Origin: an uncultured delta proteobacterium
Lineage (GTDB): Bacteria > Myxococcota > Myxococcia > Myxococcales > Myxococcaceae
Direction: 5' to 3'
Length of the DNA: 64,000 nt
NCBI GenBank assembly: GCA_963776345.1
Contig: CAVZMH010000014.1
Coordinates: forward strand, 64,001 to 128,000
The notes beneath the pieces are model-generated. The model was not told where the DNA came from. It was given only the letters and a program-made list of their open reading frames with translations, and searched no databases. Each line of letters begins with the position of its first letter. Position 1 is the first letter of the stretch. Shown one piece after another: positions 8,137 to 46,902 of this stretch. The position numbers and the translations under genes are program-made.

Positions 8137-8159
8137 GTAACGAGGTGTTTGGCACCTCG
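8137..8159 (+). repeat. REP-like hairpin, single perfect copy
   Basis: GTAA CGAGGTG TTTGG CACCTCG (7-bp stem, 5-nt loop) between convergent genes. Confidence 0.9.
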
Positions 8160-20903: not shown

Positions 20904-21187
20904 CCTCGACGGAGGTGCTCGACGGAGGTGCTGCTCGACGGAGGTGCTGCTCGACGGAGGTGCCAAACACCTCGTGACCACCTCGTGACCACCCGGAGGG
21001 GGGAGGGGTGGTGCCGCCCGAGAGGTGCCAAGCACCTCGTTACCCGCCCGAGAGGTGCCAAGCACCTCGTTACCGGCGCCGCTCGCCCGAGCCCGGGGAG
21101 GTGCCCCGGGGAGGTGCCAAACACCTCGTTACCTCCCCCGAGGGGGCCGCCTGGGAGGTGCCAGACACCTCGTGACCACCTCGTGAC
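20904..21187 (-). repeat. REP-like hairpin array: 5 copies plus half copies, all same orientation
   Basis: Copies at 20957, 21022, 21052, 21111, 21155; exact 30-bp tandem 21014-21043/21044-21073; CTCGACGGAGGTG x4 upstream. Confidence 0.9.
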
Positions 21188-21991: not shown

Positions 21992-24006
21992 GGCCGGGCA
22001 TCGTCTTCCACATCTTCCGCAAGGACCTGGTGGAGACGCTCCGCGACCGCCGCACGGTGGTGATGGCCTTCGTCGTGCCGGCCCTGCTGTACCCCCTGCT
22101 CTTCACGCTGCTCGGCTCGGTGGCCACCGACAAGCGCGGGGAGCTCGAGCGAACGCGCGCCCGGGTGGCGGCGTGGGGACCGGTGCCCGGGGCGGTGCTC
22201 GAGGCGGTGAAGCGCGAGGCCCGGGCCGAGGTCGTGGATCGCCGCGAGGTGCCACCGGCCGAGGCCGAGGCGGAGGCGCGGCGGCTCGTCGCGGCCAAGA
22301 CGGTGCACGTGGTCCTGCTCACGCCGGCCGGTGCCGCCGGGCCGAGCATCCCCATCCGGGTGCTGGCCGACTCGACCAACGTGGACTCGGACGCGATGGA
22401 GCGGCGGGTCTCCCGCGCGCTCCAGGACGCGGGAGCGGCGCTGCTGCGCGAGCGGATGACCGCGCTCGGCCAGGACCCGGCCGCCGCGAAGCCGCTCGAC
22501 CTCCGGGAGGAGGATCTGGCCGACGCCGCCCGGCGGGGCGCCAGCTTCGCCGCCGCGCTCCTGCCCTATCTGTTGCTGGTCCTGGTGGCGACCTCGGGGT
22601 TCTACGCCGCGCTCGACCTCACCGCCGGCGAGAAGGAGCGGGGCACGCTGCAGACGCTGCTCACCGCACCGGTGCGCTCGGTGGAGATCGTCGCCGGGAA
22701 GTACCTGGCGGTGCTCGCGCTCACCCTCGCCGCGACGGTGTGCAACCTCGGGTCGATCGCCCTGGCGCTGGCCCGCGGGACGGCGGCGCTGGAGGCCGGG
22801 GCGCGCTTCTCGCTCGGGCTGGCGAGCGCGGGAGCGATCTTCCTCACCGTGCTGCCGGCGGCGCTGCTCATCGTCGCGCTCCTGATGGCCGTCGGCGTCC
22901 TGGCCCGGAGCTACCGCGAGGGGCAGAGCTACCTGATGCCCCTCCTGCTCCTGGTGATGCTGGCGGGGTTCGCGAGCTTCCTCCCCGGAGCCGAGCTCAC
23001 GGCGGGCACCGCGCTGGTCCCGCTCCTCAACGTGACGCTCCTGGTGCACGACCTCCTGCTGGGGAAGGCCGGGGCATCCCTGGTGATGGTCGTCTGGGCG
23101 GTGAGCCTGGCCTGGGCGGCGCTCGGCATCCTGCTCGCGGCCCGGGTGTTCCAGACCGAGCAGGTGCTCCTGTCGGGCGAGAAGCCGTGGCGCGACGTGT
23201 TCTCGCCCGGAGTCCGGTCGGGGCGAGGCCTCACGCCCGGAAACGCCGTGCTCTTCGCCGCGGTGCTGCTGGTGCTCACCTTCTACGGCTCGGCGCTCTT
23301 CGAGCGGCGGGCCGGGGTGACCGCGCTGATCCTCGGGTCGCAGCTCGGCTTCTTCCTCGTGCCCTCGCTGCTCTGGTGCCGGCTGTTCCGTGCGCCGCTC
23401 GCCGAGACCCTGCAGCTCCGCTGGCCCACCGCGCGGGGATGGCTGGCCACTGTGCTGCTCGCGGCGGGAGGGTGGAGCGTGGGCGCGGTGGTCTGGGAGC
23501 AGCTCCTGCGCTTCCCCGGGGCGCGGGCCTATTCGGACTGGCTCGGCGAGCTGCTCGGGAAGCAGGGACAGCTCGGGGTCGGCGCGGCGCTGCTGCTGGT
23601 CGGGCTGCTCCCGGCGGTGGCCGAGGAGGTCACCTTCCGCGGCGTGGTGCTGGCGGGGCTCAGGCGCAGCGGCTCGCGGTGGATCGCGGTGGTGGGGAGC
23701 GCGCTGGTGTTCGGCCTGTTCCACATCAACCCGTACCACGTGGCCGCGGCGTCGGTGGTCGGGCTGCTCCTCGCCTGGGTGGCGCTGGAGAGCGGGAGCA
23801 TCGTCCCCGGCATGTTGATCCACCTGGTCAACAACGGCGCGCAGGTGCTGCTCGACCGCGTGCCGGACGTGGCCGCCCAGCTGCGGTCGCCGCTGGTGGT
23901 GGCTCTCGCGCTCGGGAGCACCGCGCTCGGAGCGTCGCTGGTGCGCGGCAGCAGGCGACGGACGCCCGGGCCGGCGCAGGCCTCCCCGTCGCTCGGGCCC
24001 GCCTAG
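21988..24006 (+). CDS. ABC-2 permease (NatB-like) fused to a CPBP/Abi intramembrane metalloprotease
   Basis: LRDRRT and AGEKERGTLQTLL (NatB); AEEVTFRG, FGLFH, HLVNN (CPBP); GTGA overlap with the ATPase. Confidence 0.88.
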   Translation: MRPGIVFHIFRKDLVETLRDRRTVVMAFVVPALLYPLLFTLLGSVATDKRGELERTRARVAAWGPVPGAVLEAVKREARAEVVDRREVPPAEAEAEARRLVAAKTVHVVLLTPAGAAGPSIPIRVLADSTNVDSDAMERRVSRALQDAGAALLRERMTALGQDPAAAKPLDLREEDLADAARRGASFAAALLPYLLLVLVATSGFYAALDLTAGEKERGTLQTLLTAPVRSVEIVAGKYLAVLALTLAATVCNLGSIALALARGTAALEAGARFSLGLASAGAIFLTVLPAALLIVALLMAVGVLARSYREGQSYLMPLLLLVMLAGFASFLPGAELTAGTALVPLLNVTLLVHDLLLGKAGASLVMVVWAVSLAWAALGILLAARVFQTEQVLLSGEKPWRDVFSPGVRSGRGLTPGNAVLFAAVLLVLTFYGSALFERRAGVTALILGSQLGFFLVPSLLWCRLFRAPLAETLQLRWPTARGWLATVLLAAGGWSVGAVVWEQLLRFPGARAYSDWLGELLGKQGQLGVGAALLLVGLLPAVAEEVTFRGVVLAGLRRSGSRWIAVVGSALVFGLFHINPYHVAAASVVGLLLAWVALESGSIVPGMLIHLVNNGAQVLLDRVPDVAAQLRSPLVVALALGSTALGASLVRGSRRRTPGPAQASPSLGPA

Positions 24007-25526
24007 AAGGTGAAGCGCGCGGCGAGCCCGCCGCCGCCCGGGCCGAAGACCGGGGTGACCTGGACCCGCGGCTCGGCGGCGGCGGACGAGAGCCGCTTGG
24101 AGAGGTTGCGGTTGTACCCGTCCGCGAGCCGGGCGGTCTCCTCGGGCGTGGTCACCATGTCCGGGGTGAGGGCGGCGATGGTGAGGAGCAGCCCCCCGAC
24201 CAGGACGCCGCCGCCGATGAGCATGGCGCCGTAGAGGCTGGTCTGCGCCGAGCGGTCCACGCACTTGTTGTAGCTGACCGTGCCCTGGGCGAAGCAGGCG
24301 GGGTCGTTCAGCGACTGCGCGTTGGTGCTCACGTAGATGCCGGACGCGACACCGGCGGCGAAGGTGAGGAACGAGAACCCGTAGAGGATGCCTCGCTCGC
24401 CCTTGCGCGCCTCGGAGGCCGTGGCGAGGTCGCCCCGGCCCACCATCCGGTAGAACTCCCCCGCCGAGAGCTGCTTCCCGCCGTGCAGGGTGAAGACGTC
24501 CGTCTGGTGGGGGCGGACGCGGAGCATGTCGCGGTAGTAGATCTCGCGCGCCAGGCCGGGTGGCGGCAGCTCATCCTCCACCGGCTTGCCGGGCTGCGCC
24601 TGGACCGAGTTCGTTCCGGGCGCGGGCGCCGGAGCGGCGGACGGGGCCTGCTGCACCGGGACGGCGCCGGGCGGGAGGAGAGGCTTCGCCGGGGCGCTCT
24701 GGGCGGGCGGGGCAGCCGGAGCGGTCAGCTGCTGCGCGGGTGCGGCCTGAGGTGCCGGCGCCACGAGCGGAGCGGCCACGGCGGCTCCGGCGGCGGGCGC
24801 GGAGTACTGCTGCGGGGGAGGCGCAGCGTACTGCTGAGGGGGCGCCGCGACTTGCTGCGGCGGTGGGGCGGCATACTGCTGCGCGGGTGCGGCCTGGGGC
24901 GCGGGCGCCGAGTACTGCGGCGGCGCGGCGTACTGCTGCACCGGTGCGCTCTGCGGTGGGGGCGCCACGAGCGGAGCGGCCACGGCGGCTCCGGCGGCGG
25001 GGGCGATACTGCTGCGGGGGAGGCGCGGCGTACTGCTGAGGGGGCGCCGCGACCTGCTGCGGCGGTGGGGCGGCATACTGCTGCGCGGGGGCGGCCTGGG
25101 GAGGGGGCGCGGCGTACTGCTGCGGGGGAGGTGCGGCGTATTGCTGCGCGGGAGGTGCGGCGTACTGCTGCGGGCGCGACCTGTGGCGGCGGCGCGACCG
25201 TTGCTGCGGCGGGGCGTACTGCGCCGGCGCGCATACTGCTGCGGGGGCGGTGCGGCGACCTGCTGCGGAGGCGCGGCCTGGGGAGCGGGCGCGGCGTACT
25301 GCTGCGGGGGCGGCGCGGCATACTGCTGCGGCGGCGCGACCTGTTGCTGCGGTGGGGCGTACTGCGCCGGCGCATACTGCTGCGGGGGCGCGGCCTGAGG
25401 CGGCGGCGCGACCTGTTGCTGCGGTGGGCCGTACTGCGCCGGCGGATATTGCTGCGCGGGCGCGGCCTGGGCCAGCGCCAGAGCGGGAAACAGCACACCC
25501 ATCACACAACCGAGCCGACCCAGCAT
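24003..25526 (-). CDS. Exported protein with a long PPQQYAAP repeat tract and C-terminal hydrophobic hairpin; net-compensating frameshifts within about 25005-25230
   Basis: Signal ALALA-Q, GGAGG RBS, many (A)PPQQ(Y/V)AAP units, Cys pair, C-terminal ARFTF. Confidence 0.72.
   Translation of the reverse strand: MLGRLGCVMGVLFPALALAQAAPAQQYPPAQYGPPQQQVAPPPQAAPPQQYAPAQYAPPQQQVAPPQQYAAPPPQQYAAPAPQAAPPQQVAAPPPQQYARRRSTPRRSNGRAAATGRARSSTPHLPRSNTPHLPRSSTPRPLPRPPPRSSMPPHRRSRSRRPLSSTPRLPRSSIAPAAGAAVAAPLVAPPPQSAPVQQYAAPPQYSAPAPQAAPAQQYAAPPPQQVAAPPQQYAAPPPQQYSAPAAGAAVAAPLVAPAPQAAPAQQLTAPAAPPAQSAPAKPLLPPGAVPVQQAPSAAPAPAPGTNSVQAQPGKPVEDELPPPGLAREIYYRDMLRVRPHQTDVFTLHGGKQLSAGEFYRMVGRGDLATASEARKGERGILYGFSFLTFAAGVASGIYVSTNAQSLNDPACFAQGTVSYNKCVDRSAQTSLYGAMLIGGGVLVGGLLLTIAALTPDMVTTPEETARLADGYNRNLSKRLSSAAAEPRVQVTPVFGPGGGGLAARFTF
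24725..25470. repeat. Coding tandem repeat tract (CAGCAGTAC-based units) with an internal duplication about 204 bp apart
   Basis: Recurring TACTGCTGCGG on the + strand; the same 41-mer starts at 24757 and 24961. Confidence 0.85.
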
Positions 25527-25747
25527 CGTCGCCTCCACGCGAGCGGCGCTCCCCTCGTGCCGCCTCGGGACGCCCCCAGGGGTCCCCCATCATCGTCAGG
25601 CGGGCACTTCTTCTCCAGCCTGCCGTCACCGGCTGGACGCCAACCCGGCAAGAGATCCGACACTCGTGGGGAGGATTCGTTGCAGCCGGGAGGCGTCGTT
25701 CGAGTCGCCGCGCGTCCGGCGGGTGACGGATGGGGGGAACGGCCCGG

Positions 25748-26500
25748 TCATCCGACCTGGATGCGCCCGGCCTCCGCGTCGAGGCGGGCCTTCTCGGCGA
25801 TGATCAGCCCCCGGACGTGCTCGCGGAAGGCCGCCACGTCCCCACCGAAGGGAGCTGGATCCACGGGAGGGAGGACCCGGACCCGGCACCGCGCCGTCCC
25901 GCGCATCACCCAGCCGTGCTTGGGGAGCAAGTCGCCGGTTCCGCTCAGGGCGATGGGAATGAGTGGCACCTGCCGCTCGATGGCCATCCGGAAGGCCCCG
26001 TCCTTGAACGCCTTCACCTCCCCGTCGGGGGAGCGGGTCCCCTCCGGGAAGAGGAGCACCGGGACTCCCCGCGCGAGCCAGGCCTCACAGGCACGCACCA
26101 TGGTGGCGATGCTGTCCCGGTCCCCGCGGACCAGGGGGACGTACCGGTTGAGCCGCATGTTCCAGCCGATGAACGGGATGCGGAAGTTGCTCGCCTTGGA
26201 CACCCACTTGAAGGGGCGCCAGAGCCCGAAGAGCACCAGGATGTCCGCGAGCGAGGCGTGGTTGGAGACGAGCACCGCGGCGCCACGCCATGGCAGGTGT
26301 TCGCGCCCCTCGACGCGGAGCCGCCAGAACGGGTTGCTCCAGAAGAAGAGCTGCGCCCAGAAGCACGAGTACAGGTGGAGGAGGCGCCCGTTCCGGTCCA
26401 CCGGCAGTGTGACCAGCCACACCACCAGCGCCCCGAGGAAGAGCGGGACGCAGCCCAGCGCGAGGTAGGCCCAGAACAGCGCGGAGAAGACGGCACGCAT
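25748..26500 (-). CDS. plsC: 1-acyl-sn-glycerol-3-phosphate acyltransferase
   Basis: NHASLAD (NHxxxxD) and FPEGTRS motifs. Confidence 0.9.
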   Translation of the reverse strand: MRAVFSALFWAYLALGCVPLFLGALVVWLVTLPVDRNGRLLHLYSCFWAQLFFWSNPFWRLRVEGREHLPWRGAAVLVSNHASLADILVLFGLWRPFKWVSKASNFRIPFIGWNMRLNRYVPLVRGDRDSIATMVRACEAWLARGVPVLLFPEGTRSPDGEVKAFKDGAFRMAIERQVPLIPIALSGTGDLLPKHGWVMRGTARCRVRVLPPVDPAPFGGDVAAFREHVRGLIIAEKARLDAEAGRIQVG

Positions 26501-26968: not shown

Positions 26969-27101
26969 GTCACGAGGTGCAGGTAACGAGGGGTAACGAG
27001 GTGCTTGGCACCCCGGTAACGAGGTGCTTGGCACCCTAGGTAACGAGGTGCTTGGTAACGAGGTGCTTGGCACCTCTGGTAACGAGGTGTTTGGCACCTC
27101 G
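26969..27101 (+). repeat. Dense head-to-tail REP-like array: 4 full copies plus truncated ones
   Basis: GTAACGAGGTG(C/T)TTGGCACC at 26993, 27016, 27055, 27079; partials at 26969, 26983, 27040. Confidence 0.92.
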
Positions 27102-27143
27102 GGTCTTGACGCGGACTGCACCGGCGTTCAGGAATGCGGGCCC

Positions 27144-30100
27144 ATGGCCGCGCCGCAGATCCCGCTCCAGTTCGCGTCCGCGGCGGACGCGGTCGACCCC
27201 GCACTCGCCGCGTTCCATCCGCTCGTCCAGCGCTGGTTCCGGTCGACGCTCGGGCAGCCCTCCGAGCCGCAGAGCCGCGGGTGGCCCCGCATCCTCGCCG
27301 GCGAGGACGTGCTGCTCGCCGCGCCCACGGGCTCCGGCAAGACGCTCTCGGCGTTCCTCGCCGCGCTGGACCGGCTCCTGCGGCTCGCGCTCGAGAACCG
27401 TCTCGAGGACCGGACCTCGGTGGTCTACGTCTCGCCGCTGAAGGCGCTGGGGAACGACGTCCAGAAGAACCTCCTCGGTCCGCTGGAGGCCATCTACGAG
27501 CTGGCGGCAGCCGAGGGGCTCCTCCCCGAGCCGATCCGCGTCCAGGTGCGCACCGGGGACACCCCGGCCAGCGAGCGGGCGCAGATGCTCCGCCGTCCTC
27601 CGCACGTCCTCATCACCACGCCCGAGTCGCTCTACCTGGTGCTCACCGCGGCGCGTGGCCGCGAGACGCTCCGGCACGTCGACACGGTCATCGTGGACGA
27701 GATCCACGCGCTCGCCCGGGACAAGCGGGGCAGCCACCTCGCGCTCTCGCTCGAGCGGCTCAAGGCGCAGGTGCGGCGCCGTCCCCAGCTGATCGGCCTC
27801 TCCGCCACCCAGAAGCCGGTCGAGACCTTCGCCTCGTTCCTCACCGGCCGTCCCGAGGGGTGCGCGGTGGTGCAGGTGGGGCACCTCCGGAAGTGGCAGC
27901 TCTCGCTGGAGACGCCCGAGGACGCGCTGAGCGCCGTGGCCACCCACGAGATGTGGGGCCAGGTCTACGACCGGCTGGTGCAGCTGACCTCCGAGCACCG
28001 GACCACGCTCATCTTCACCAACACCCGCAAGCTCGCCGAGCGCGTGGCCCACGACCTCGGAACGCGCCTCGGTCCAGGGACGGTGTCGGCGCACCACGGG
28101 AGCATGGCCCGCGAGCTACGGCTCGCCGCGGAGGAGAAGCTCAAGCGGGGCGAGCTCCGGGCGATGGTGGCCACCGCCTCGCTCGAGCTGGGGATCGACA
28201 TCGGGGCGGTGGACCTGGTGGTGCAGCTCGGCAGCCCGCGGGGCATCGCGCTGTTCCTCCAGAGGGTGGGCCGGGCCGGTCACTCCCTGCACGGGGTGAG
28301 CAAGGGCATCCTCTTCGCCCTCACCCGCGACGAGCTGGTGGAGTGCACGGCGCTGCTCCGTGCGGTCCACGACGGCGAGCTCGACGCGGTGCGGATGCCC
28401 GAGGCGCCGCTGGACGTGCTCGCGCAGCAGATCGTCGCCGCCTGCGCGGTGGATGCCTGGGACGAGCGGGCGCTCTACTCGCTGGTGAAGCGCGCCTGGC
28501 CGTACCGCGACCTCGGCTGGGAGACGTACGCCCAGGTCCTCCAGATGCTCTCCGAGGGCGTGAGCGAGCGGCGCGGCCGGATGCGCGTCCACCTCCACCG
28601 TGACCGGGTGAACCACGTGCTCCGGGCGCGAAAGGGCGCGCGGCTCACGGCGCTGATGAACGGCGGTGCGATTCCCGACACGTTCACCTACCCGGTGGTG
28701 GCCGAGCCCGACGGGCGGCAGGTGGGGACGCTCGACGAGGACTTCGCGGTGGAGACGATGGCCGGGGACGTCTTCCTGCTCGGGAGCACCAGCTGGCGGG
28801 TGCAGGGACTCCGGGGTGGGGTGGTGCGCGTCGAGGACGCCCGGGGCGCTCCGCCGAGCGTGCCCTTCTGGAGAGGCGAGGCGCCGTCCCGGACGGACGA
28901 GCTGTCACGCGAGGTGGGCCGGCTCCGCGACGAGCTGCTCGAGCACCCCTCGCCGGCGGAGTGGCTGCAACGGCTCGGCCTCGGTCCGCGGGACGGCGAG
29001 TCGCTCTCGGAGTACCTGCGCGCGAGCCATCGGATCCTGGGGGCGCTGCCCAGCGCGCGCATGGTCATCGCCGAGCGCTTCTTCGACGAGGCCGGCGGGA
29101 TGCAGCTCATCCTCCACGCCCCGTTCGGCGGGCGCATCAACCGGGCCTGGGGGCTCGCGCTCCGCAAGCGCTTCTGCCGCACCTTCGACTTCGAGCTGCA
29201 GGCCGCGGCGACCGACGACGGCATCCTCCTCTCGCTGGGAGAGCAGCACAGCTTCCCGCTCGCGGACATCTTCGAGTTCCTGCACCCGGACACGGTCGAG
29301 TCGGTGCTGGTGCAGGCGGTGCTCCAGGCGCCGCTGTTCGGGACCCGGTTCCGCTGGAGCGCCACGCGGGCGCTCGCGCTCTCCCGTTACCAGAGCGGCG
29401 GCCGCGTTCCGCCCCACATCCAGCGGGCGCGGGCGGAAGATCTCCTGGCGGCGGTGTTTCCCGCGCAGGTGGGCTGTCAGGACAACCACGGGGGCGCGGA
29501 GATCGAGCCGCCCGACCACCCGCTGGTGCGCGAGGCGCTGCGCGACTGCCTCACCGAGGCGCTCGACGTCGAGGGCCTGAAGAACGTGCTGCGGGCGCTG
29601 CGGGCGGGGGAGATCCGGACCCTGGCGCGGGACCTGCCCGAGCCGTCGCCGCTGGCCCACGCACTCCTGAACTCCCAGCCGTACACCTTCCTGGACGAGG
29701 CGCCGCTCGAGGAGCGCCGGGCCCGGGCGGTGCAGGTTCGCCGCGCGTTGCCGGCCGAGGACGCCGCGGGGCTGGGGGCGCTCGACGCTTCCGCCATCGA
29801 GCAGGTCGTCGCCGATGCCCGGCCGCTGGTCCGTGACGCCGAGGAGCTCCACGACTGGCTGCTCGCGGCGGTGCTGGTGCCGGCCGAGGGCGTTCCGTCG
29901 CACCTCCTGGAGCCGCTCGTCGCCACCGGTCGCGCCGCCACTCTCCACGTCGGATGGTAACGAGGTGCTTGGCACCGCAGGTAACGAGGTGCTGTCCGGC
30001 GGTAACGAGGTGCTTGGCACCGCGAGGGAAGGGCGCGCCTTCGTCGTCTGCGCGGAACGGATCCTGCACGTGCTTGCCCTCTTCCCGGGTGGCCGGGTGG

Positions 30101-31473
30101 TCCCTTCGCTGTCGCCGCTGGCTGGCGATGCTCCCGTCGAACGGGAAGCTGCGGCCCTGGCCGTGGTGCGTGGTCGGATGGAGGTCGCCGGTCCGGTGAC
30201 CGTGGCCGGCCTCAGCCTCGCGCTCGCGGTTCCCCCGGAGGACGTGACCCTTGCGCTGCACCGGCTCGAGTCGGAGGGGCAGGTCCTGCGGGGCACCTTC
30301 CGGCCCGGCGCGCAGGAGCTCGAGTGGTGCGATCGCCGGCTGCTCCAGCGCATCCACCGCCTGACCGTGGGGCGGCTACGCCGCGAGATCGAGCCGCTCT
30401 CGGCACAGGACTTCATGCGGTTCCTCTTCCGGTGGCACCACCTCGAGCCCAGCGACGCGCTGGGCGGTCAGGGCGGTCTGCTCCGGGCGGTGTCGCTGCT
30501 CGAGGGCTGGGAGGCGCCGGCGGCGGCGTGGGAACAGGTGCTGCTCCCGGCCAGGGTTCGCGGCAACGTGCCCGAGCTGCTCGAGCGAGCTTGCTGGGCC
30601 GGCGACGTCGCCTGGGGCAGGCTGAGCCTGCGCGAGCCTCGGGCCGTCGGCCCGCGACGCGGGGCAGAAGCCGAGCCGGTGGTTGCGCGGGCGATGAAGC
30701 CTGGCCGGACTGCCACGCTGACCTTCGTCCGACGCTCCGAGCTGGAGACCCTGCTCATGGCGGCGCGCGGCGATGCGTCGGACGGCTGGCCCGACGACCT
30801 GGGTGACGGGAGCCGCGCCGTGGCCGAGGTGCTTGCCCGGCGGGGGGCGTGCTTCTTCACCGAGCTGGTGTCCGGCACCGGCCAGCCGGTCGAGGCGGTG
30901 GAGAACGCGCTCTGGGACCTGCTCGCCCGGGGGCTGGTCACCGCGGATGCCGTGGACAACCTACGGGTGCTGCTGAGCCCGAAGCGCCGGCGCCAGCAGC
31001 GAGCGCTGAAGCGTGGTGGGCCCGGTCGGTGGTCGCTGCTCCGCGCCGCGGCGGAGGCGAGCGAGGAGGAACGGCTGGCCTGTCTCGGTCGGCTGTTCCT
31101 GGCCCGCTGGGGCATCGTGTTCCGGGACCTGGTGGTGCGGGAACCGCTGAGCCCGCCCTGGCGAGAGCTGGTCCGCCACTACCGTCGGCTCGAGGCTCGG
31201 GGCGAGATCCGCGGTGGCCGGTTCCTGGCCGGGGTCGCTGGAGAGCAGTTCGCGCTGCCGGACGCGGTGGAGGTGGCGCGGACGATCCGGAGGTCCCGGC
31301 CTTCCGGCCAGCGGATCGAGGTGGCGGCGGTGGACCCGCTGAACCTGACGGGCATCGTGACCCCGGGCCCGCGGATACCGGCCGTGCTCGGACAGAAGGT
31401 CCTCTACCTCGACGGCGTCCCCCAGGCGCCTGACTGCACCCCGGTGGAGCCCGAACCCGCCCTGGCGTCCTGA
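27144..31473 (+). CDS. lhr: Lhr-family SF2 helicase (long form), split at about 29953 by a +1 frameshift next to a REP insertion
   Basis: APTGSGKT, SPLKAL, DEIH, LSATQ, SLELGID, QRVGRAGH in 27144-29960; C-terminal part (RIHRLT, GRWSLL, GEIRGGRF, GEQFALP) in the next frame to 31473. Confidence 0.9.
29957..30021 (+). repeat. Three REP-like units inside lhr
   Basis: GTAACGAGGTGCT at 29957, 29981, 30002; spacings 24 and 21 nt. Confidence 0.92.
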
Positions 31474-31484
31474 CGAGGTCCTGA

Positions 31485-31507
31485 CGAGGTGTCAAACACC
31501 TCGTTAC
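31485..31507 (-). repeat. REP-like hairpin upstream of the transposase
   Basis: CGAGGTG TCAAA CACCTCG TTAC. Confidence 0.9.
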
Positions 31508-31559
31508 CCTCGTTGGCCCGCCTCGTGCTGGGGGTCCTCCCCAAAAGGGGGGAACGCGA

Positions 31560-32486
31560 ATGGGTCGGCCACTCCGCGACTTCGTAGCTCTCGGAATCTA
31601 TCTCGTGACTGCCCGCTGCTTTCAGCGGCGGTTGCTGCTCCGTCCGTCCAAGGAGACGAACGCAGTCCTTGGCGGTGTACTGGCGCGCGCCGCGCGTCTC
31701 TACGGTGTGGAGCTCTTTGCGTTCAATTTCGCCTCGAATCACATGCACCTTGTCGTCCGCGCCCCGCGCGGGAATCTGCCGCGGTTCATGCAGTACCTCA
31801 TGACGAACATCTCGAAGAAGGTGGGCGCGCTCGTCGGATGGCGAGGGGCGTTCTGGGAACGTCGGTACTCCGCCGCGCCGATCCTCGACGATGCGGCTCT
31901 GCTCGAGCGAGTCGGATACGTGATGGCCCACGGCGTGAAGGAGGGGCTGGTCCGCCTTTGCTGCGACTGGCCCGGCCTGAGCTCCCTCGAGATGATGCTC
32001 GACGGACAGCCGCGCACAGTCCAATGGTTCAACTGGACGCGGCGATCGAGCGGGAACCGGCACGGCGAGACTCGGGCGCAGCTCGACCCACGCTGGGCCG
32101 AGCCGGAGGAGCTCAGGCTCGCGACCCTCCCGAGTCCTGCCCTGCAGGCACCGGAGTCACTCCGGAGATTCCTGCACCGGGCGGTCAAGGCGATCGAGGA
32201 GAAGGGATCGCGCCAGCACAAGAAGGTGCTGGGAGTCGAGGGGGTCTTGAGGCAATGGCCGCAGCGGAGGCCGCCACCTCCAAGGCAACGAAAGCCGCGG
32301 CCTCCCTGTCACGCCACGGTCGCAGCCCTTCGCGACGGCTATCTCCAGCGCTACCGGGACTTCGCAGCCACCTTCCACGAGGCCTCCAGACGCTGGCGGA
32401 GCGGAGACCCTGCAGCCTCGTTCCCGGACGCGGCCATCAAGCCATTCGTCTGGCCAATCCCAGAAACGCCCCGGCTTGCTGCATGA
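31560..32486 (+). mobile_element. HUH/Y1 tyrosine transposase (IS200/RAYT-like) with C-terminal extension
   Basis: YLVTARC, SNHMHLVV (HUH), FWERRY, YVMAHGVKEGLV (position of the catalytic Tyr, equivalent to YxxxNPVxAGLV); hairpin repeats on both sides; no tnpB. Confidence 0.88.
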
Positions 32487-32523
32487 GGCGTGACCAGGCC
32501 AACGCGAACGAGGCAGCACCGAA

Positions 32524-32574
32524 CGAGGTGCCAAACACCTCGTTACCAAAACACCTCGTTACCGACCTCGTTAC
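32524..32574 (-). repeat. REP-like hairpin plus two half copies downstream of the transposase
   Basis: CGAGGTGCCAAACACCTCGTTAC, then AAAACACCTCGTTAC and ACCTCGTTAC. Confidence 0.9.
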
Positions 32575-32617
32575 CGGTGACCGCAACTCGCCACCAGCCC
32601 GGCCCGAGCGCCGCTTC

Positions 32618-33261: not shown

Positions 33262-35979
33262 TCAGACGCGGAGCTCGGGCAGCCGCTGCGTGCCGGCGAG
33301 CGCGGGCGCGAACAGGTCCCCCAGCGCCCGGAGTCGCCCCGGCACGGTGCGGATGTTGAACTTCGCCGGGTCGAGCCCCGCGTCCACCTCGTCCCACTCG
33401 AGCGGCGTCGAGACCGGCGCGCCCTCCACCGCCCGGATCGAGTACGGGGCGACCAGCGTCTTCAGCCGGCCGTTCTGGTGCGCGTCGAGATACAGCCTCC
33501 CCCGCCGCCGCTTCAGCGCCCGTTCGGTCGTTGCCAGCTCCGGGAAGCGGGCGGCGAGCGCCCCGGCCACCGCCTCCGCGAACCCGAGCGCCTGCGCATG
33601 CGTGTGCCCCGGCCCGAGCGGGACGAAGACGTGCAGTCCACGCTTCCCGGACGTCTTGGGCACCGAGAGGAGCTTCAGCTCGTCGAGCAGCCCCTTCAGC
33701 GCCCAGGCCAGCGGGGCGATCTGCGCCCACCCGCCCTCCGCGGGGTCGAAGTCGAACGCCACCCAGTCCGGGCTCTCCACGGTGGCGGCGCGGCTCGAGG
33801 TCATGTGCAGGGTGAGCGCGGACTGGTTGGCGAGCCAGGCCACCGTCTCGGGGCGGTCGACGACGATGTGCTCCAGCGGGTGGTCCACGTGCTGCACGGT
33901 CACCCGGGGGATCCACCCCGGAGCCGTGGTCGCCGCCTGCCGGAAGATGCCCGGCCGGCCGATGCCCTGGGGCCACTGCTGCATGGAGAGCGGACGCCCG
34001 CGGAGCGCGGCGATCAGCGCCGGCGCGACCGCGTCCGCGTACGCCCGGACGTCGGCCTTGGTGATCTTCGTGACCGGGAAGAGGACCTTCTCCGGATGGG
34101 TGATCGGAACCTCCGCCGGAGGAGGCTCGGCCGCGGCCCGCAACGAGCCCCCTGCCGCGCCGGCGAGCTCCTCGCCGTCACCGCGACCCGAGTGCCAGGT
34201 CCCGAACCCGTCCGCCGGCGTGCTCCCGAAGAACCCCGGGGCGGGCGCCTCGTCCGGTTCGCCACCGTCGGTGGAGCGTCGCCTCGATGAGCCGTCCTTC
34301 CCGCGCCTCGCGCCGCTCGTCGGTCCCGCGCTCGGTCCCGGGCCCGTCCGCGCCCTCGCCGCCGCGACCGGGCGAGCCGCGGCCCGCCGCCCCGACCCGC
34401 GCGCCTCCGCCGTCGCCGCCGGCGCCTCCTTCCCCGGCCGAGTCACGCCCTCGTCCTGTCCGATCTCCAGCGGTCCCTTGTCCTCCCGGAGTCCCTGGAA
34501 CGACGGATGCCGGAGCTTCCCGTCCCGCGTCCACTCGGTGAACTGCAGCTCGGCCACGTGCCGCGGCATCACCCAGCGGGCGTCGCGCATCCGCGGAGCG
34601 CCGTCGACGGCGGGCTTCGGCACCTCGTCCTTCTCCAGCAGCGTGAGCAGCCGGCGTCGCATCGCCCGGTCGAACCCGGTGCCGACCTTCCCCGCGTAGA
34701 CGAAGCGCCCGCCCCGCAGCGCCGCCACCAGGAGCGCGCCGATCTCGGCCGAGCCATTGGAAATGGGAGTCCAGCCCGCGATGACCAGCTCGTCGGTCCC
34801 GAGAATCTTGAGTTTCAGCCAGTCCGCGCTCCGGGTCCCGGTGTACGGCGAGCCCCGCAGCTTGGCCAGGAGCCCTTCCCACCCGCGCGCCTTGGCCTCG
34901 GCGACCGCGCTCTCCTCGTCGCCGCGGACGCGCTGGGCGAGCTCGAGCGGGGCCCCAGTGTTGGCCATGACCGACTCGAGCAGCTCCCGGCGCTCCTCGA
35001 GCGGTCTCCGGCGCAGGTCCTCCCCGTCGAGCCAGAGCAGGTCGAACACCACGTACCGGTGCTCGGCCCCGGGGTCGCCGAGCTTCTGGAAGCGCGACAC
35101 CCCGGCCTCGTCCCGCGCCACCAGCTCGCCGTCCAGCACCGCCTCGCCCACCACCAGTTGCGAGAGCGCGGGCAGCACCCAGGGGAAGCGCGCGCCGAAG
35201 TCGAGGTCGTTCCGCGAGCGCACCGCGACCTTGCCCCCCGAGATGGCCGCGAGCGCCCGATACCCGTCGTACTTCACCTCGTACACGAAGCGGCTCGCGG
35301 GCGCCGGCGTGCCCTTGGAGAGCACGGCGAGCATCGGCGGCCAGACGCGCGCGAGCAGCGTCTCCGGGTCGGGGTGGCTCCCGCGGAGCTGGCGCTGTCG
35401 CTCGGGGCCGCGGGTGAGGCGGCGGCCGCTGACCACCGACTCGGGGCGCTCGGCCACCACGTCGTAGTCCGGCCGCTCCGTGCCGTCCTTGGCCTTGAAC
35501 AGGAGCCACTGGGCCTTGCCTCCCTGCGGCCGGGTTCGCACCAGGTGCCACCCGCCCTGCAGCTTCTGCCCGTCGAAGACCAGGTGGAGGTGGCCCTTCT
35601 TGCGCTGGGCCTGCATCTGCCCTGGGGGCTCGGTGTCGTAGGTGCCGCGGTCCCAGATGATGCTGTCCCCCGCGCCGTACTCGCCGTCGGGGATGCGGCC
35701 CTCGAAGTCGCCGTAGGCGAGCGGGTGGTCCTCGGTCTCCACTGCCAGCCGTTTCTGCGCGGGGTCGTAGCTCGGGCCCTTGGGGCAGGCCCAGCTGGCG
35801 AGCACGCCTTCCACCTCGAGCCGCAGGTCGTAGTGGAGCCGGGTCGCGTCGTGCTTGTGCACCATGAACCGCAGCGCCCCCGCAGGGGCCGGGGCGGGCT
35901 GCCCGGGCGCGGGCTCCGGCGTGACCGCGAAGTCGCGCTTCTGCCGGTAGGTCTCGAGCGGGTCGTTGCGGCGAGGCAT
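33262..35979 (-). CDS. ligD: NHEJ DNA ligase D (phosphoesterase-ligase-polymerase)
   Basis: HDATRLHYDLRLE (PE domain), EVKYDGYR and EGLLAK (ligase), FDFDP and KTSGKRGLH (primase-polymerase). Start ATG 35979. Confidence 0.95.
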   Translation of the reverse strand: MPRRNDPLETYRQKRDFAVTPEPAPGQPAPAPAGALRFMVHKHDATRLHYDLRLEVEGVLASWACPKGPSYDPAQKRLAVETEDHPLAYGDFEGRIPDGEYGAGDSIIWDRGTYDTEPPGQMQAQRKKGHLHLVFDGQKLQGGWHLVRTRPQGGKAQWLLFKAKDGTERPDYDVVAERPESVVSGRRLTRGPERQRQLRGSHPDPETLLARVWPPMLAVLSKGTPAPASRFVYEVKYDGYRALAAISGGKVAVRSRNDLDFGARFPWVLPALSQLVVGEAVLDGELVARDEAGVSRFQKLGDPGAEHRYVVFDLLWLDGEDLRRRPLEERRELLESVMANTGAPLELAQRVRGDEESAVAEAKARGWEGLLAKLRGSPYTGTRSADWLKLKILGTDELVIAGWTPISNGSAEIGALLVAALRGGRFVYAGKVGTGFDRAMRRRLLTLLEKDEVPKPAVDGAPRMRDARWVMPRHVAELQFTEWTRDGKLRHPSFQGLREDKGPLEIGQDEGVTRPGKEAPAATAEARGSGRRAAARPVAAARARTGPGPSAGPTSGARRGKDGSSRRRSTDGGEPDEAPAPGFFGSTPADGFGTWHSGRGDGEELAGAAGGSLRAAAEPPPAEVPITHPEKVLFPVTKITKADVRAYADAVAPALIAALRGRPLSMQQWPQGIGRPGIFRQAATTAPGWIPRVTVQHVDHPLEHIVVDRPETVAWLANQSALTLHMTSSRAATVESPDWVAFDFDPAEGGWAQIAPLAWALKGLLDELKLLSVPKTSGKRGLHVFVPLGPGHTHAQALGFAEAVAGALAARFPELATTERALKRRRGRLYLDAHQNGRLKTLVAPYSIRAVEGAPVSTPLEWDEVDAGLDPAKFNIRTVPGRLRALGDLFAPALAGTQRLPELRV

Positions 35980-36077
35980 GGGTGGGTCTGCCGGAGCGGG
36001 AAAGTGAGCACGCCGCCCTGCCGCCGCGCAAAGACCCGCCCGGACGGGGTCCCGCCGGAAGGGGGTGCCCCCGTCGA

Positions 36078-36385
36078 CGAGGTGTCTCGACGAAGTGCCA
36101 AACACCTCGTTACCGGACGCCTCGTCACCGCCCGGACGAGGTGCCGCCCGGATAGGGGTCTCTGCCCTCGGACAGGAGTCTCCCTCCGAGGTGCCAAACA
36201 CCTCGTTACCGGGTCTCCCCCTCGCCGAGGTGCCAAGCACCTCGTTACCGCACCTCGTTACCGACCTCGTGACCGGCCGCACGAGCGGCTGGACGGGGTC
36301 TCCCCCTCAACGCGGTGCCTCAACGCGGTGCCAAACACCTCGTTACCACCTCGTTACCGACATCTCGTGACCCACACCTCGTGAC
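36078..36385 (-). repeat. REP-like array (4 copies plus half copies) between divergent ligD and hutF
   Basis: Copies at about 36092, 36187, 36226, 36327; recurring local flank GGGTCTCCCCCTC. Confidence 0.9.
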
Positions 36386-39664: not shown

Positions 39665-39951
39665 CGAGGTGTCAAACACCTCGTTACCGGCTCCGTGACG
39701 CCCATCGAGCGTCTCGAGCGGTTCAGGATGTTCCTTGTCGGGTCCGAGAACCGCGACACCCGTCCGCGAGGCGAGACGTCCCGTGCGGCAGCTCGTTGCG
39801 CCGCCACGTGCGGTGTCCGGACACAGTGCCCGGACACAGTGCCAAACACCTCGTTACCGCGACCGAGGCGGTGCCCGGACACGGTGCCAAGCACCTCGTT
39901 ACCACCTCGCTACCCCCGACCAGTCCGCCGAGGTGCCAAACACCTCGTTAC
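39665..39951 (-). repeat. REP-like array, 4 copies
   Basis: Copies at 39665, 39839, 39883, 39929; local flank CGGACAC(A/G)GTGCC repeated three times. Confidence 0.9.
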
Positions 39952-40910: not shown

Positions 40911-41197
40911 GTGTCGAGGTCTCCTCCGCACCCGGAGTCGAGGGAGTGAAGCGGGCGCGGTCGACGGAAGAGCGTAGAAAAGGGGATCCCCTCGTTGAAG
41001 ATGGAGCGGCCGCGACCCAGTGGGACGATGGATGCGACCGCAACTTTACACGCGCCCTCTCGGCGCGCCCGGAGTGCGCAGCTCTCGGGAGCACGAAGCG
41101 CGCGCACCACCCGCGCGCCCGCTCGACCACCCCCGTCGCCGCTGTGCGACCCGCGTCCCGCTCAGGCGCCACAACCCCTGCGAGCGGCCGCCGAGAC

Positions 41198-41217
41198 GGT
41201 GCCAGACACCTCGTTAC
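41198..41217 (-). repeat. REP-like copy downstream of mfd
   Basis: GGTGCCAGACACCTCGTTAC. Confidence 0.85.
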
Positions 41218-41257
41218 CTCCGCGCGCCCGCGAGGAGCTCGGGGGGCGCGTTGCCGC

Positions 41258-44200
41258 TCAGCTCACGGCGCAGCCGGCCAGATCGCGCAGCACCTTCTTC
41301 GCCTCGCCCAGCAGTGCCGCCGCCTGATCCGGCCCCTCCCGGCGCGCGACCAGCTTGAGGTCCGGAGTGAGCCGGTACACGCCCTTGCTCTTCTGCACCA
41401 GCGCCGCGAGCTTCGCCCCGTCGAGCAGCGCGTCCTGGCCGAGCGTCACCACCAGCCGCCCCGCGCCGCTCTCCAGCGCCCGGAGCCGCAGCTCCCGCAT
41501 CTCCAGCTTGAGCAGCATCAGCTCGCTCAGCGCGTCCACCTCGTCCGGCAGCTCGCCGAACCGGTCCACCAGCTCGACCCGCAGATCGCTCACCTCGTCG
41601 GCCGACCCGGCGCTGCTGAAGCGCTTGTAGAGCACCAGCCGCTGGTGCACGTCCGGCACGTAGTCGTCCGGGATCAGCGCCGGGATGGGCAAGGTCACCT
41701 CGGGCTCGATCTCCACCCGCGGCGGCTCGCCCCGCATCTCCGCCACCGCCTCCTCGAGCAGCTGGGTGTACAGGTCGAAGCCGATCTCCGCGATGGTGCC
41801 CGACTGGTCGTGCCCGAGCAGATTTCCCGCGCCACGGATCTCGAGGTCGTGGCTGGCGATGCTGAACCCCGCGCCGAGCTCGGTGAACGCCTGCAGCACC
41901 TCCAGCCGCCGCTGCGCGTCCCGGGTCACCGCCCGCCGCGCCGGCACGAGCAGGTACGCATACGCCCGCTCCTTGGCCCGGCCGACCCGCCCCCGCAGCT
42001 GGTAGAGCTGCGACAACCCGAACGTATCCGCCCGGTTCACCACCATGGTGTTCGCCGCGGCGATGTCGATGCCGCTCTCGATGATGGTCGTCGACAGAAG
42101 GACCTGGAACTTCCGGTCCACGAAGTCCGCCATCGCCTTCTCCAGCTGCCCCTCGCCCATCTGCCCGTGCGCCACGCCGATGGTCGCCTCCGGCACCAGC
42201 TCGCGCAGGAACCGCTCCATCGAGTGGATCGACTGCACCCGGTTGTGGACGAAGAACACCTGCCCGCCGCGCTGGAGCTCCCGGACGATGGCCTCGCGGA
42301 TGGTGGGCGCATCGAACTTGGTGACGAAGGTCCGGATGGCCCGCCTGTCCTGAGGAGGCGTGGCGATGATGCTCATGTCCCTGAGCCCGGACATGCTCAT
42401 GTGCAGGGTGCGGGGAATCGGCGTCGCGGTCAGGGTCAGCACGTCCACCTGGGTCCGCAGCTGCTTGATGCGCTCCTTGTGCTTCACCCCGAAGCGCTGC
42501 TCCTCGTCGACGACGAGCAACCCCAGCTCCTTGAACCCCACCTCGGTCCCCAGCAGCTTGTGGGTGCCGATCAGGATGTCGACCTTGCCCTCGCGGGCGC
42601 GCTGGAGCACCTCGCGCACCTCGGCCGGCTTCCGCATCGACGAGACCACCTCGATGCTCACCGGGTAGTCCGCGAACCGCTTCCGGAAGGTGTGGAAGTG
42701 CTGCTGGGCGAGCACCGTGGTCGGCACCAGCACCGCCACCTGCTTCCGGTCCAGCGTGGCCTTGAAGGCGGCCCGCATCGCCACCTCGGTCTTGCCGTAG
42801 CCCACGTCGCCGCAGACCAGCCGGTCCATCGGCTCGGGCTTCTGCATGTCGGCCAGCACGTCCTCGATGGCCTTGGCCTGGTCCGGCGTCTCGTCGAACT
42901 CGAAGTCGGCCTCGAACTGGCGGAAGTAGCGGTCGGGCGGATTGAACGAATGGCCCGGATGCGCGTGCCGCGCGGCATAGAGCCGGAGCAGCTCCGCGGC
43001 CATCTTCAGCAGGGTCTCCTTCACCCGCTGCTTGGTCCGCAGCCAGCCCGTGCCGCCGAGCTTGTCCAGCGCGACCTTCGACGGGTCGCCGCCGGTGAAC
43101 TTCTGGATGAGCCGCATCCGGCTCACCGGCAGGTAGATCTTGTCCCGCCCGGCGTACTCGAGGACCAGGAAGTCGCCCGGGATTCCCTGGACCTGCATCT
43201 TGGTCAGCCCGGCGTAGCGGCCGATGCCGAAGTCGGTGTGGACGATGAGGTCGCCTTCCTTCAGCTCGCGGAACGCCGCGCCGAAGGGCTGGTCCGTCCG
43301 CCGCGCCTTCACCCGCCGGTGCGCCCGGGCGCCGAAGATCTCCTCGTCGCTCAGGACCGCCAGGCCGCCGCCCGGGTCCACGAACCCGTGGCTCACCTCG
43401 CCGGTGAACAGGTGGGCCCAGATGCTGGGGTCGCGCAGCGCCGCCGGGTCGGCGAACGGCTCGGCGTGCGCCCGCACCATCACGTTCCGGTCGAGGAGCA
43501 GCCGCTTCACCCGGTCCACCTGGCCCGCGCTGCCGCAGGCGATGGCCGTGGACACCCGCATCTCCCGCCAGCGCTCGAGCCGCTGCACCAGCGGGGTCAG
43601 CGCCCCCTCCTCGCCGTGATGCGAGAGGATGGCCTGGCGCAGGTCCGAGGTCGTCCCGAACGTGAACGCCACCGGCGCGCCGCTCGCCGAGAGCGACAGC
43701 CCGCCGCCCTCGAGCACCGGGTAGCGCCCGATCCCGGTGAGCAGCGTGTCGTCGTCGGCGAAGTGCTGCTCGGGCGGGAGCGCCAGGTCCTTCCGGGACA
43801 CGGCCTCGGCCCAGACCTGGTCGATCTCGCTCCGCAGCTCCTCGGCCGCGCGCCCGACGCCGAGCGGGTCGTCGACGTACACCAGCGGCTCGCGCGCCCA
43901 GTGCGGCAGGTAGTCGAGCACCGTCGCCAGCCCGCCCGGGAAGAAGCCGGGGAGCAGCGCCTCCATCCCGTAGGCCGGGATGCCCTCGCGGATCTTGTCC
44001 AGCGTCTCGCGGAGCCGGCTGGTCGGGATGTCGATGCGCTCGGCGGCGGCCCGGGCGGCGGCCTCGGCGGCGACGCGCGTCTCCTCGGTGAAGAGCACCT
44101 CGCGCGCGGGGATGAGCGTCGCTTCCTTCAGGAGCTCCGCCGTCCGCTGCGTCGCCGGGTCGAACAGCCGGAGCGACTCGACGGTGTCGCCGAACAGCTC

Positions 44201-44869: not shown

Positions 44870-44883
44870 CCGCTCCTCGGCGC

Positions 44884-44930
44884 GGTGCGAGACACCTCGA
44901 TGCCCGAAGCGGTGCCAGACACCTCGTTAC
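44884..44930 (-). repeat. REP-like copy plus degenerate copy between mfd and doc
   Basis: GGTGCCAGACACCTCGTTAC at 44911-44930; GGTGCGAGACACCTCG at 44884. Confidence 0.85.
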
Positions 44931-44956
44931 GGCCGGGCCTGGGTCGCAACCAGGCG

Positions 44957-45355
44957 TCACGCCTCGACCACCCGCTCCCGGATGAACTCCGCCAGCTCCG
45001 CTTTGCTTGCCTCTCCCCGGGCGGTGCGCAGCACCAGCTCCGCGAGCTCGTCGGGGTCCGCCTCCAGCCACAGCCCGTTGAGACCGAGAAAGGCGATCGC
45101 CGCCGCGAGGCCGACCCGCTTGTTGCCGTCGACGAACGGGTGGTTCCCGGCCAGGTGGAACAGGTAGGCAGCCGCCATCTCCGGAAGGCTCGGATGGAGG
45201 TACACGCGGCCGAACGTGGTGCGCGGCATGCCGAGCGCCGACTCGAGCAGCCCGAGGTCACGGAGGCCTGGCCGGCCGCCATAGCGCGCGATCTGATCGG
45301 CGTGGAGGGCCAGGACCTCGTCCAGGGTGAGGAAGACCGGCTTGAGTCGGCTCAC
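44957..45355 (-). CDS. doc: Doc/Fic family toxin
   Basis: FLTLDEVLALH, RDLGLLESAL, Fic motif HPFVDGNKRVG; GTGA overlap with the antitoxin stop. Confidence 0.9.
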   Translation of the reverse strand: MSRLKPVFLTLDEVLALHADQIARYGGRPGLRDLGLLESALGMPRTTFGRVYLHPSLPEMAAAYLFHLAGNHPFVDGNKRVGLAAAIAFLGLNGLWLEADPDELAELVLRTARGEASKAELAEFIRERVVEA

Positions 45356-45579
45356 TCGGCGAGGCGGCGGAAGGTTCCCCCGTACCTGGCATGGGCGCGT
45401 GCCATCACCTTGCGCAACCTCTCGGTCCGCCGGGCCGAGCGGACCGGTGAGATGACGATGACCTCGCCGTCGGTCGAGACCTCCAGCGGCGTGGTGGCGC
45501 GGATTCCGGTGGACTCGAGCAGGTCCCGGTCGAGGATCAGAGCGAGGCTGTTCCCGGTGCGAGTGAGCTTCTTCCTCAT
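45352..45579 (-). CDS. AbrB/MazE-fold antitoxin
   Basis: KLTRTGNSLALIL; 75 aa, coupled upstream of doc. Confidence 0.85.
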   Translation of the reverse strand: MRKKLTRTGNSLALILDRDLLESTGIRATTPLEVSTDGEVIVISPVRSARRTERLRKVMARAHARYGGTFRRLAE

Positions 45580-45658
45580 GGTTCGTACAGGATAGCACTC
45601 TTGTACGGACCGCGGCCGGAGGTCGATTCGTGAGGGGTTGGCCCGGGGGGACGGGCTG

Positions 45659-46650: not shown

Positions 46651-46880
46651 GACTTCTCGGGTTCGTGAGCGCCCGATGGATCCGTGCCCCTGACGCGGGC
46701 GGGTCCGGACCACGCCGGTACCCAGCGCGCGCAGGATGGTGCCGCGACGCCGGTCATCGCCGATTGGCCTTCGCAACACCGGGGCGGTCACCCAAGCCCT
46801 GGGGAGGGGGCCTGCCTCCCATTCGCTCGAGTGTCCACTCCCGGGACACGTTGTCCCGGGACCGGCAGACGGTGCCGGGG

Positions 46881-46902
46881 GAGGTGCCAAACACCTCGTT
46901 AC
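46881..46902 (-). repeat. REP-like copy upstream of the ABC permease
   Basis: GAGGTGCCAAACACCTCGTTAC. Confidence 0.9.

Follow-up and report, generated by a model that had tools for sequence, protein, structure and literature searches.

A TIRYT-like transposase with a TnpA-REP-type fold and its paralog-specific repeat halos in a soil myxobacterium

The 64-kb stretch of DNA analysed here (the window), from the genome of a soil myxobacterium, carries a Y1/HUH tyrosine transposase gene flanked by copies of a hairpin-forming repeat; we examined it together with the rest of the genome assembly (G000) and with assemblies of congeners. The gene (gene A; 31560..32486, plus strand) encodes a 308-aa protein whose translation carries NHMH and YVMAHGVKEGLV, with the H61-x-H63 pair at 31740-31748, the catalytic tyrosine Y120 at 31917-31919, a spacing of 57 aa between HUH and tyrosine, and a histidine, H124, four positions after the tyrosine (Y+4). 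One repeat lies on each side, both on the minus strand. The upstream copy (31485..31507) reads GGTGTC|AAACACCTCGTTAC on the plus strand (the bar marks the predicted nick, here 31493/31494), ends 52 bp before the gene start and has an exact core at 9 of 10 ortholog loci; the downstream copy (32524..32546; predicted nick 32532/32533 on the plus strand) begins 37 bp past the stop and has a core match in the downstream intergenic region of all 10. Both fold stably (z -4.6 to -6.1), and their same-strand arrangement, noted in the original prediction, is conserved at locus A and seen also at locus C, the site of a paralog. A partial tandem copy made of flank and part of an arm (31469..31479, plus strand) stands outside the upstream repeat and overlaps the stop codon of the neighbouring lhr gene, and the inner half of the downstream repeat recurs as two partial tandem copies at 32548..32575 (plus strand), where contigs of two other runs are 12 nt shorter. 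Across the window the repeat has 24 matches at up to three mismatches, against none in 100 shuffles; they make up 10 loci spanning 8137 to 46902, and a looser copy at about 41195-41217 adds an eleventh.

The protein matches the Pfam Y1_Tnp model (PF01797) at 30.5 bits against a cut-off of 23, and scores below the cut-offs of the NCBIfam models for RAYT (NF047646; 50.1 bits, cut-off 80) and IS200 (NF033573; 17.9 bits, cut-off 55) proteins. An AlphaFold2 model built from a 119-row family alignment (pLDDT 95) finds its best structural match in E. coli TnpA-REP (4ER8; Z 17.2, root-mean-square deviation (rmsd) 2.4 over 155 aa); the match to IS608 TnpA is weaker (Z 10.4, rmsd 6.0), with an rmsd range of 6-9 for the IS200 type. 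As modelled, the fold is of the TnpA-REP type and nearer to it than to the IS200 fold. These structure searches hardly reached residues past 219, and a search of the Atlas returned only unnamed clusters with scores under 0.9. The earlier description of a RAYT-like HUH protein with a repeat family of its own is thereby upheld.

Among the 119 family members, H61 is kept in 118, H63 in 113 and Y120 in 116, and the Y+4 residue is most often H (67 members), followed by N (27) and Q (24). The Y---NP signature of class 2 is absent from the window protein, which reads YVMAHG, the NP after the tyrosine being replaced by HG as first described; the Y+4/+5 pair is HG, QG or NG in 92 of the 119 members and NP in 13. 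As Quentin 2018 (PMC6006769) gives the Y+4 position a metal-binding role, a histidine there would be a plausible conservative change. The tail of roughly 170 aa beyond the Y1 core carries a conserved pattern, KRSPxPxCH ... FP..FPP; Pfam detects a helix-turn-helix (HTH) or DnaA_C tail in 0 of the 119 members, while references of the subclass-2.1 type do give matches, and no short three-helix motif is evident in the predicted structure of the 308-aa protein. A candidate zinc site (C20/C134/C250/H251) was dropped because C20 and C134 are poorly kept, in 47 and 18 of the 119 members.

The genome encodes three Y1 genes (A, B and C), all of this family and 60-64% identical to one another, and all 12 congeners have family matches, one to eight each. 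In 10 congeners an ortholog of gene A lies between lhr and DUF420, with 63-72% identity against 78-95% for the neighbours; nonsynonymous (dN) and synonymous (dS) divergence of 0.20-0.27 and 1.0-1.6 give a dN/dS of about 0.15-0.23, indicating purifying selection. Single syntenic copies with low dN/dS point to domestication of the RAYT kind and not to insertion sequence (IS) behaviour: the near-identical, multi-copy, non-syntenic state that characterizes IS200/IS605 is not found in this genus, and vertical inheritance, low copy number and a cognate repeat family, the marks of canonical RAYTs, are.

Around each paralog lies a halo of repeats of that paralog's own variant. Within 50 kb of the gene lie 12 of 31 loci for gene A (0.6 expected), 9 of 12 for gene C (0.2 expected) and 5 of 8 for gene B (0.1 expected); in G007, 12 of 20 loci fall in the halo on a 3.66-Mb contig, and the halo is seen in G004 too. 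The window copies are part of a gene-centred halo and not of an even genome-wide family. All 13 genomes of the genus contain the core AGGTGYYTGRCACC, in 27-156 copies each, against 0-4 copies in 28 other genomes; six of these 28 carry distant homologs, several with other end variants. The C variant is found in each of the 7 genomes that have gene C, one of them with a broken copy, and in none of the 4 near-complete (95-100%) genomes without it. Repeat and gene thus co-occur, as the original prediction asked, in genomes that are kin and hence not independent. We do not claim the halo as a new phenomenon, since Nunvar 2010 (PMC2817692) already describes repeat accumulation near rayt genes. A syntenic 20-kb stretch has no repeat copies in G003 and five in this genome. 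At one locus gene C is found in some genomes and missing from others, and the gene-free site of G003 holds no leftover repeat; at the corresponding place in G007 (C4:1847-1883 kb, L221) a few repeats persist, gene C is missing and other DNA stands in its place, and in G004 (C21:633056-633953) paralog C is in two pieces, and most of the 14 cognate repeats of that genome surround it. Upstream of paralog B (L002, G000:C23:5883-5908) lies a perfect palindrome of 26 bp that has GGTGTC|GACACC in its middle and lacks a central base; it may be a scar of excision or of hairpin resolution.

Throughout the family the repeats have one constant part, the end motif GGTGYC|A, which lies on the strand opposite to the one on which the original prediction had read a GTAA tetranucleotide as a GTAG-like guide. 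On the gene's strand the unit reads flank-GGTGYC|A[AG]ACACCTCGTTAC, and a centre-anchored alignment of halo A shows GGTAACGAG to be 92-100% conserved and the outer 3' arm positions 54-81%. The hairpin itself stands, with a stem of 9 bp that takes in the last A of GTAA and so leaves GGTA as the unpaired foot; the tandem partial duplications at most copies, and one array inside lhr, had been missed. We reject the guide because the tetranucleotide varies (GTAA/GTCA, ATTA/ACTA/ATGA or CTCG according to paralog, and GGAA at both flanks of one ortholog) and because a homologous Cystobacter end forms no hairpin. A GTAA foot is also already on record for one subclass-2.2 repetitive extragenic palindromic (REP) element, and the GT[AG]G foot of canonical RAYT substrates does not occur 5' of the hairpin in these repeats. 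Distant family members carry GG[TG]G[TC]C|A upstream of the gene, and one (L122) has the exact GGGGTCAC, beside GGTGYCA[AG] as the end motif of the window repeats. Two subclass-2.1-type genes (L167/L171) have inverted ends with an identical GGTGTC(A/T)GACACC core, and four others of that type have ends like GGGGWSAS, which Di Nocera 2013 (PMC3733652) gives as the TIRYT end consensus. The end motif appears to fit TIRYT ends, not GTAG REPs.

A partial duplication adjoins 80 of 107 core sites (a count that includes whole-unit repeats within arrays); the corresponding figures are 153 of 2000 for random positions and 22 of 243 for other hairpins. Its outer copy ends exactly at GGTGYC| in 8 of 16 and 16 of 27 cases in this genome, 30 of 49 at loci of the genus and 45 of 78 in Cystobacter/Archangium (periods up to 30 nt, palindromic sites in this genome being counted on both strands); elsewhere, such a copy accompanies only 6 of the other 3513 GGTGTC sites. 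Given that TnpA-REP cuts at C|T and C|A according to Corneloup 2021 (PMC8266576), we infer a nick at this bond, and the half-copy endpoints are likely its footprint. HTH-tailed Y1 genes with inverted ends and a GGTGTC/GACACC core occur at L167, L171 and L155; L155 also stutters, so the footprint may hold across TIRYTs. Contigs from four runs of four studies, with pieces about 98-99% identical, differ by indels at the arrays: among the matches listed (12 of 72) there are indels of -1 and +15 near 29955 and -12 at 32551, and a 96-nt skip at 26981. A GTGCTTGG variant is present in 9 copies over 5 arrays of halo A and in 0 of 84 copies at 10 orthologous loci; such a lineage-specific variant over several arrays points to transfer between loci. 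Adjacent GTMAC pairs are same-strand in 15 cases and inverted in none, so that the inverted doublets of REPINs and BIMEs are not seen here.

The family takes another form in Cystobacter and Archangium. There the ends read GGTGTC|AAAG[AG]A[CT]TCG and are inverted, with both strict ends at 17 of 27 loci and the left end at 25 of these 27; a Cystobacter end, the only one that we folded, forms no hairpin (z +0.35). Copies are numerous and non-syntenic (at least 9 in strain Cbf 10, among the matches listed, 80 loci), 79-95% identical within a genome, and only one pair among the 27 loci shares flanks. Mini-elements of about 52 bp with two inverted ends lie, as read by eye, at more than a dozen places; we observe them with inverted GGTGTC ends at L083:4885-4960 and, in similar form, in L078, L081, L090, L096 and L106, with outer flanks that are partly complementary, so that the whole folds as one long hairpin (z -4.7). 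At L134 unrelated sequence, which may be a further mobile element, seems to break up the right end just after the gene. More widely, the family comprises 689 clusters at 50% identity (E<=1e-30) and occurs in 94 of 301 sampled genomes of the phylum; named members come, among others, from metagenome-assembled genomes of Myxococcaceae and from Cystobacter, Archangium and Vitiosangium.

In two trees of the Y1 core (62 and 61 rows), quick searches with SH-aLRT support, the family is one side of a branch with support 96 and lies next to the 2.1-type references, with a joint support of 95 in the first tree, its NP-bearing members branching first; neither tree includes six reference rows whose starts were uncertain or whose cores were partial, and the second also lacks one long row. 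The TIRYTs and TIRtrons of Di Nocera 2013 correspond to Quentin's subclass 2.1 and to Bertels' RAYT group 1. The system is real and is TIRYT/RAYT-like, yet it lacks defining features of canonical RAYTs, of subclass 2.1 as defined and of IS200; judged from its sequences, it is an undescribed and distinct, mainly myxobacterial TIRYT-like clade of proteins of about 300 aa, as the original prediction of a distinct myxobacterial system had anticipated. Among the papers listed by our literature searches, which left most subscription journals aside, none deals with this clade, its stutter or a sigma-54 site; the term TIRYT occurs in only two works, and Figure 9 and Additional file 5 of PMC3733652 could contain members.

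That site is a predicted promoter, GG-N10-GC, at 31514..31529 (plus strand), 30 bp before the start codon of gene A, which we take to be a sigma-54 -24/-12 consensus. In 86 of 109 distinct family upstream regions, TGGC-N9-GC[AT] is found 15-60 nt ahead of the start, compared with 0 on the reverse strand, 1.1 in shuffles, 44 of 2419 other ORFs of the genome and 0 of 14 references of the 2.1 type; a relaxed pattern, chosen after viewing the misses, gives 105 of 109 (shuffles 2.5). The sigma-54 gene rpoN is found in all three congeners tested, in G007 14 kb beyond where contig C14 ends. The conservation of this predicted site suggests host control of the transposase.

We propose, as the probable account of these observations, that a vertically inherited HUH enzyme of TnpA-REP fold, related to the TIR-associated transposases (TIRYT, subclass 2.1), likely nicks its end motif at GGTGYC|A and likely acts in cis, mainly close to its own gene, where it would re-copy the motif into a halo of tens of kilobases. 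The proposal builds on direct observations (the fold, the synteny, the paralog-specific halos, the co-presence of gene and variant, and the half-copies ending at GGTGYC|), and its mechanistic steps would be as follows. H61, H63 and H124 would bind metal, and an attack by Y120 on the C|A bond would link the inner half to the enzyme as a 5'-phosphotyrosine and give the flank a 3'-OH. Tandem half-copies would then arise from slipped re-extension at the 3'-OH or from strand transfer between sister copies, and the inner half could be transferred to nearby GTGYC-like sites or existing copies, so that the repeat would spread and homogenize in cis. Specificity would reside in the inner ~14 nt, the hairpin being a secondary feature of a single end in this genus; the predicted sigma-54 promoter would place expression under host control, and the Cystobacter/Archangium copies, with inverted ends and mini-elements, would represent a still-mobile state.

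Several findings weigh against this proposal. Two genomes (G011 and G012, 68% and 75% complete) have C-type repeats with gene C undetected, and 19 of the 31 GTMAC loci lie beyond 50 kb of gene A; 9 of these are on C17, and in G007 two stretches sampled from it map at 200-440 kb from gene A. The halo sites are in synteny in 10 genomes of about 80% identity, where their core hardly varies and their flanks cannot be aligned, and sites this old imply that the activity seen mostly rewrites existing sites and does not insert new ones. No clean pair of empty and filled sites was found, so that the true ends and the target are deduced: the flanks of two Cystobacter copies were not found in four other genomes searched for empty sites, and intergenic empty sites in G003 are too diverged for alignment. 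For about 40% of the outer half-copies the end lies at another place, and microhomology makes the endpoints less sharp; the array indels come from 12 of 72 rows among the matches listed. The subclass 2.1 references were assigned by motif and partly by DnaA_C/HTH Pfam tail and are not Quentin's own sequences, both trees are quick searches, and an approximately unbiased (AU) test does not reject a grouping of the family with the IS200 clade (p 0.417). Finally, rpoN was not found in this assembly, where its expected position is past a contig end.

The alternative that survives best is the one first put forward: a GTAA/GGTA guide plus hairpin as a REP-type substrate, with the gene leaving as an IS200-like single-strand circle cut out between the two direct copies. 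We consider it unlikely, and it owes what weight it keeps to the conserved direct orientation at locus A, which two genomes show at locus C as well; the 15-to-0 excess of same-strand GTMAC pairs, the 92-100% conservation of GGTAACGAG in halo A, the stable hairpins, the presence or absence of gene C at one locus and the room that the AU test leaves for closeness to IS200 are also in its favour. Yet the foot varies among both paralogs and orthologs, the one Cystobacter end folded gives no hairpin, the outer 3' arm is far less conserved than the core, and the breakpoints fall in the loop and not beside the foot; moreover, single-copy excision would leave one repeat at the gene-free site of G003, where there is none. 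An intermediate position between IS200 and RAYT, as originally suggested, may still hold, since the AU test leaves the clade free to join IS200; the IS200-like part of that suggestion is weak because the fold is of the TnpA-REP type, the gene is syntenic and the ends of the mobile-looking relatives are inverted, not direct.

We regard as quite improbable a second alternative, in which the protein only binds the repeats, in a selected structural or regulatory role, and length variation comes from polymerase slippage or LigD repair at hairpins. The sites are indeed ancient and syntenic, ligD lies about 0.8 kb from the transposase stop, and the G004 genome with its broken gene C still has 14 repeats. 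But other hairpins of the genome are rarely duplicated, endpoints pile up at one bond even at the non-hairpin Cystobacter ends, the catalytic H61, H63 and Y120 are almost always kept, and halos surround paralogs B and C at other loci as well. A third alternative, very improbable, takes the repeats for scars left where full inverted-end elements or mini-elements once inserted and excised, and the three genes for passive remnants today: such elements exist in relatives, a perfect centre-less palindrome lies upstream of paralog B and some paralogs are broken, but gene A is under purifying selection, a new variant has spread over pre-existing sites, and strains differ at the arrays.

The rest of the halo in the window was delimited by repeat search and consists of arrays of four copies upstream of lhr (26993..27101, plus strand; one contig of another run skips 96 nt here), five copies at 20956..21176 (minus), four upstream of ligD at 36091..36346 (minus) and four at 39665..39951 (minus), with single copies at 8137..8159 (plus), 44908..44930 (minus) and 46880..46902 (minus) and the more diverged copy, the looser match, at 41195..41217 (minus). 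Another array lies within the lhr helicase gene (29957..30024, plus strand); it is in frame (NEV[FS]GT) with hypervariable flanks in 8 of 8 orthologs, all of which have an intact lhr, and out of frame here, where lhr (27024-31473) is split by a frame change beside it. Two other runs lack one base at 29951 relative to this assembly, and the frame break may be an assembly error; intragenic REPs have precedent. On the other side of the transposase gene, a full LigD with phosphoesterase, ligase and primase-polymerase is encoded at 33262-36282 (minus strand), its ORF as called starting inside the upstream repeat array. Long ORFs at 22173-26468 and 40946-45595 have no Pfam match and may be wrong-frame calls, and a part at about 24.8-25.5 kb is internally repetitive in blast against relatives. 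Rfam gave no match in the window from 20000 to 48000, a search of a phage collection gave none, and a plasmid search gave two weak matches.

The clade is of interest because a genomic footprint points to one phosphodiester bond and because a single family spans two states. In cultured myxobacteria it takes the form of multi-copy, inverted-end elements accompanied by mini-elements, and in its other state that of fixed genes, each paralog with a halo of its own. Such a family could show how transposons of this kind become domesticated. The clade also suggests that much of the superfamily (689 clusters) has TIRYT-type ends, not GTAG hairpins, for a substrate. More speculatively, and with considerable doubt, we envisage a transposon family with inverted ends and ~52-bp mini-elements in Cystobacter/Archangium, sigma-54-wired across the phylum, that has been domesticated in this genus as a host-regulated, cis-acting local mutator, nicking GGTGYC|A and diversifying intergenic spacers and an in-frame Lhr loop.

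Among known systems, TIRYTs of subclass 2.1 are the tree neighbours and share with this family the Y1 HUH core, NHxH, a serine after W-x-G, perhaps an end motif like GGGGWSAS, inverted ends (in the Cystobacter/Archangium members), moderate repeat families and several diverged paralogs per genome. The family differs from them in its HG, QG or NG at Y+4/+5 (92 of 119), in a conserved tail other than DnaA_C/HTH, in a sigma-54-type site that 0 of 14 references share, and in ends that are direct in this genus and hence not terminal inverted repeats; Quentin 2018 reports no REP-like repeats for subclass 2.1. E. coli TnpA-REP/RayT (2.2; 4ER8) and group-3 RAYTs, with their REPINs, offer the best structural match and share vertical inheritance, paralog-specific repeats, the predicted C|A cut and accumulation near the gene. 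Unlike them, the present system has no GTAG/GTGG foot, no inverted pairs among 15 adjacent ones and a presumed cut inside the motif, and its protein has 308 aa against 165 and scores 50 against the RAYT cut-off of 80 bits. With IS200/IS605 TnpA (IS608, ISDra2) it shares the HUH/Y1 core, same-strand hairpins on both sides in this genus and a Gln at Y+4 in 24 of 119 members; it departs from them in its weaker fold match (rmsd 6-9), in an NF033573 score of 17.9 against 55, in lacking both the Y---Q motif and the typical length of about 150 aa, in single syntenic copies only 60-64% identical within the genome, and in having lhr and DUF420 as neighbours with no tnpB beside the gene. In Quentin 2018, class 3 is proposed as an IS/REPtron intermediate and subclass 2.3 is described as multi-copy with proteins of 325 aa. 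The family recalls the former in its proposed intermediate status and the latter in being long and multi-copy, and, compared with their published descriptions, it differs in having no CnGA foot, no Y----Q motif and an HUH-tyrosine spacing of 57 aa, which lacks the 55-aa insertion of the 2.3 kind.

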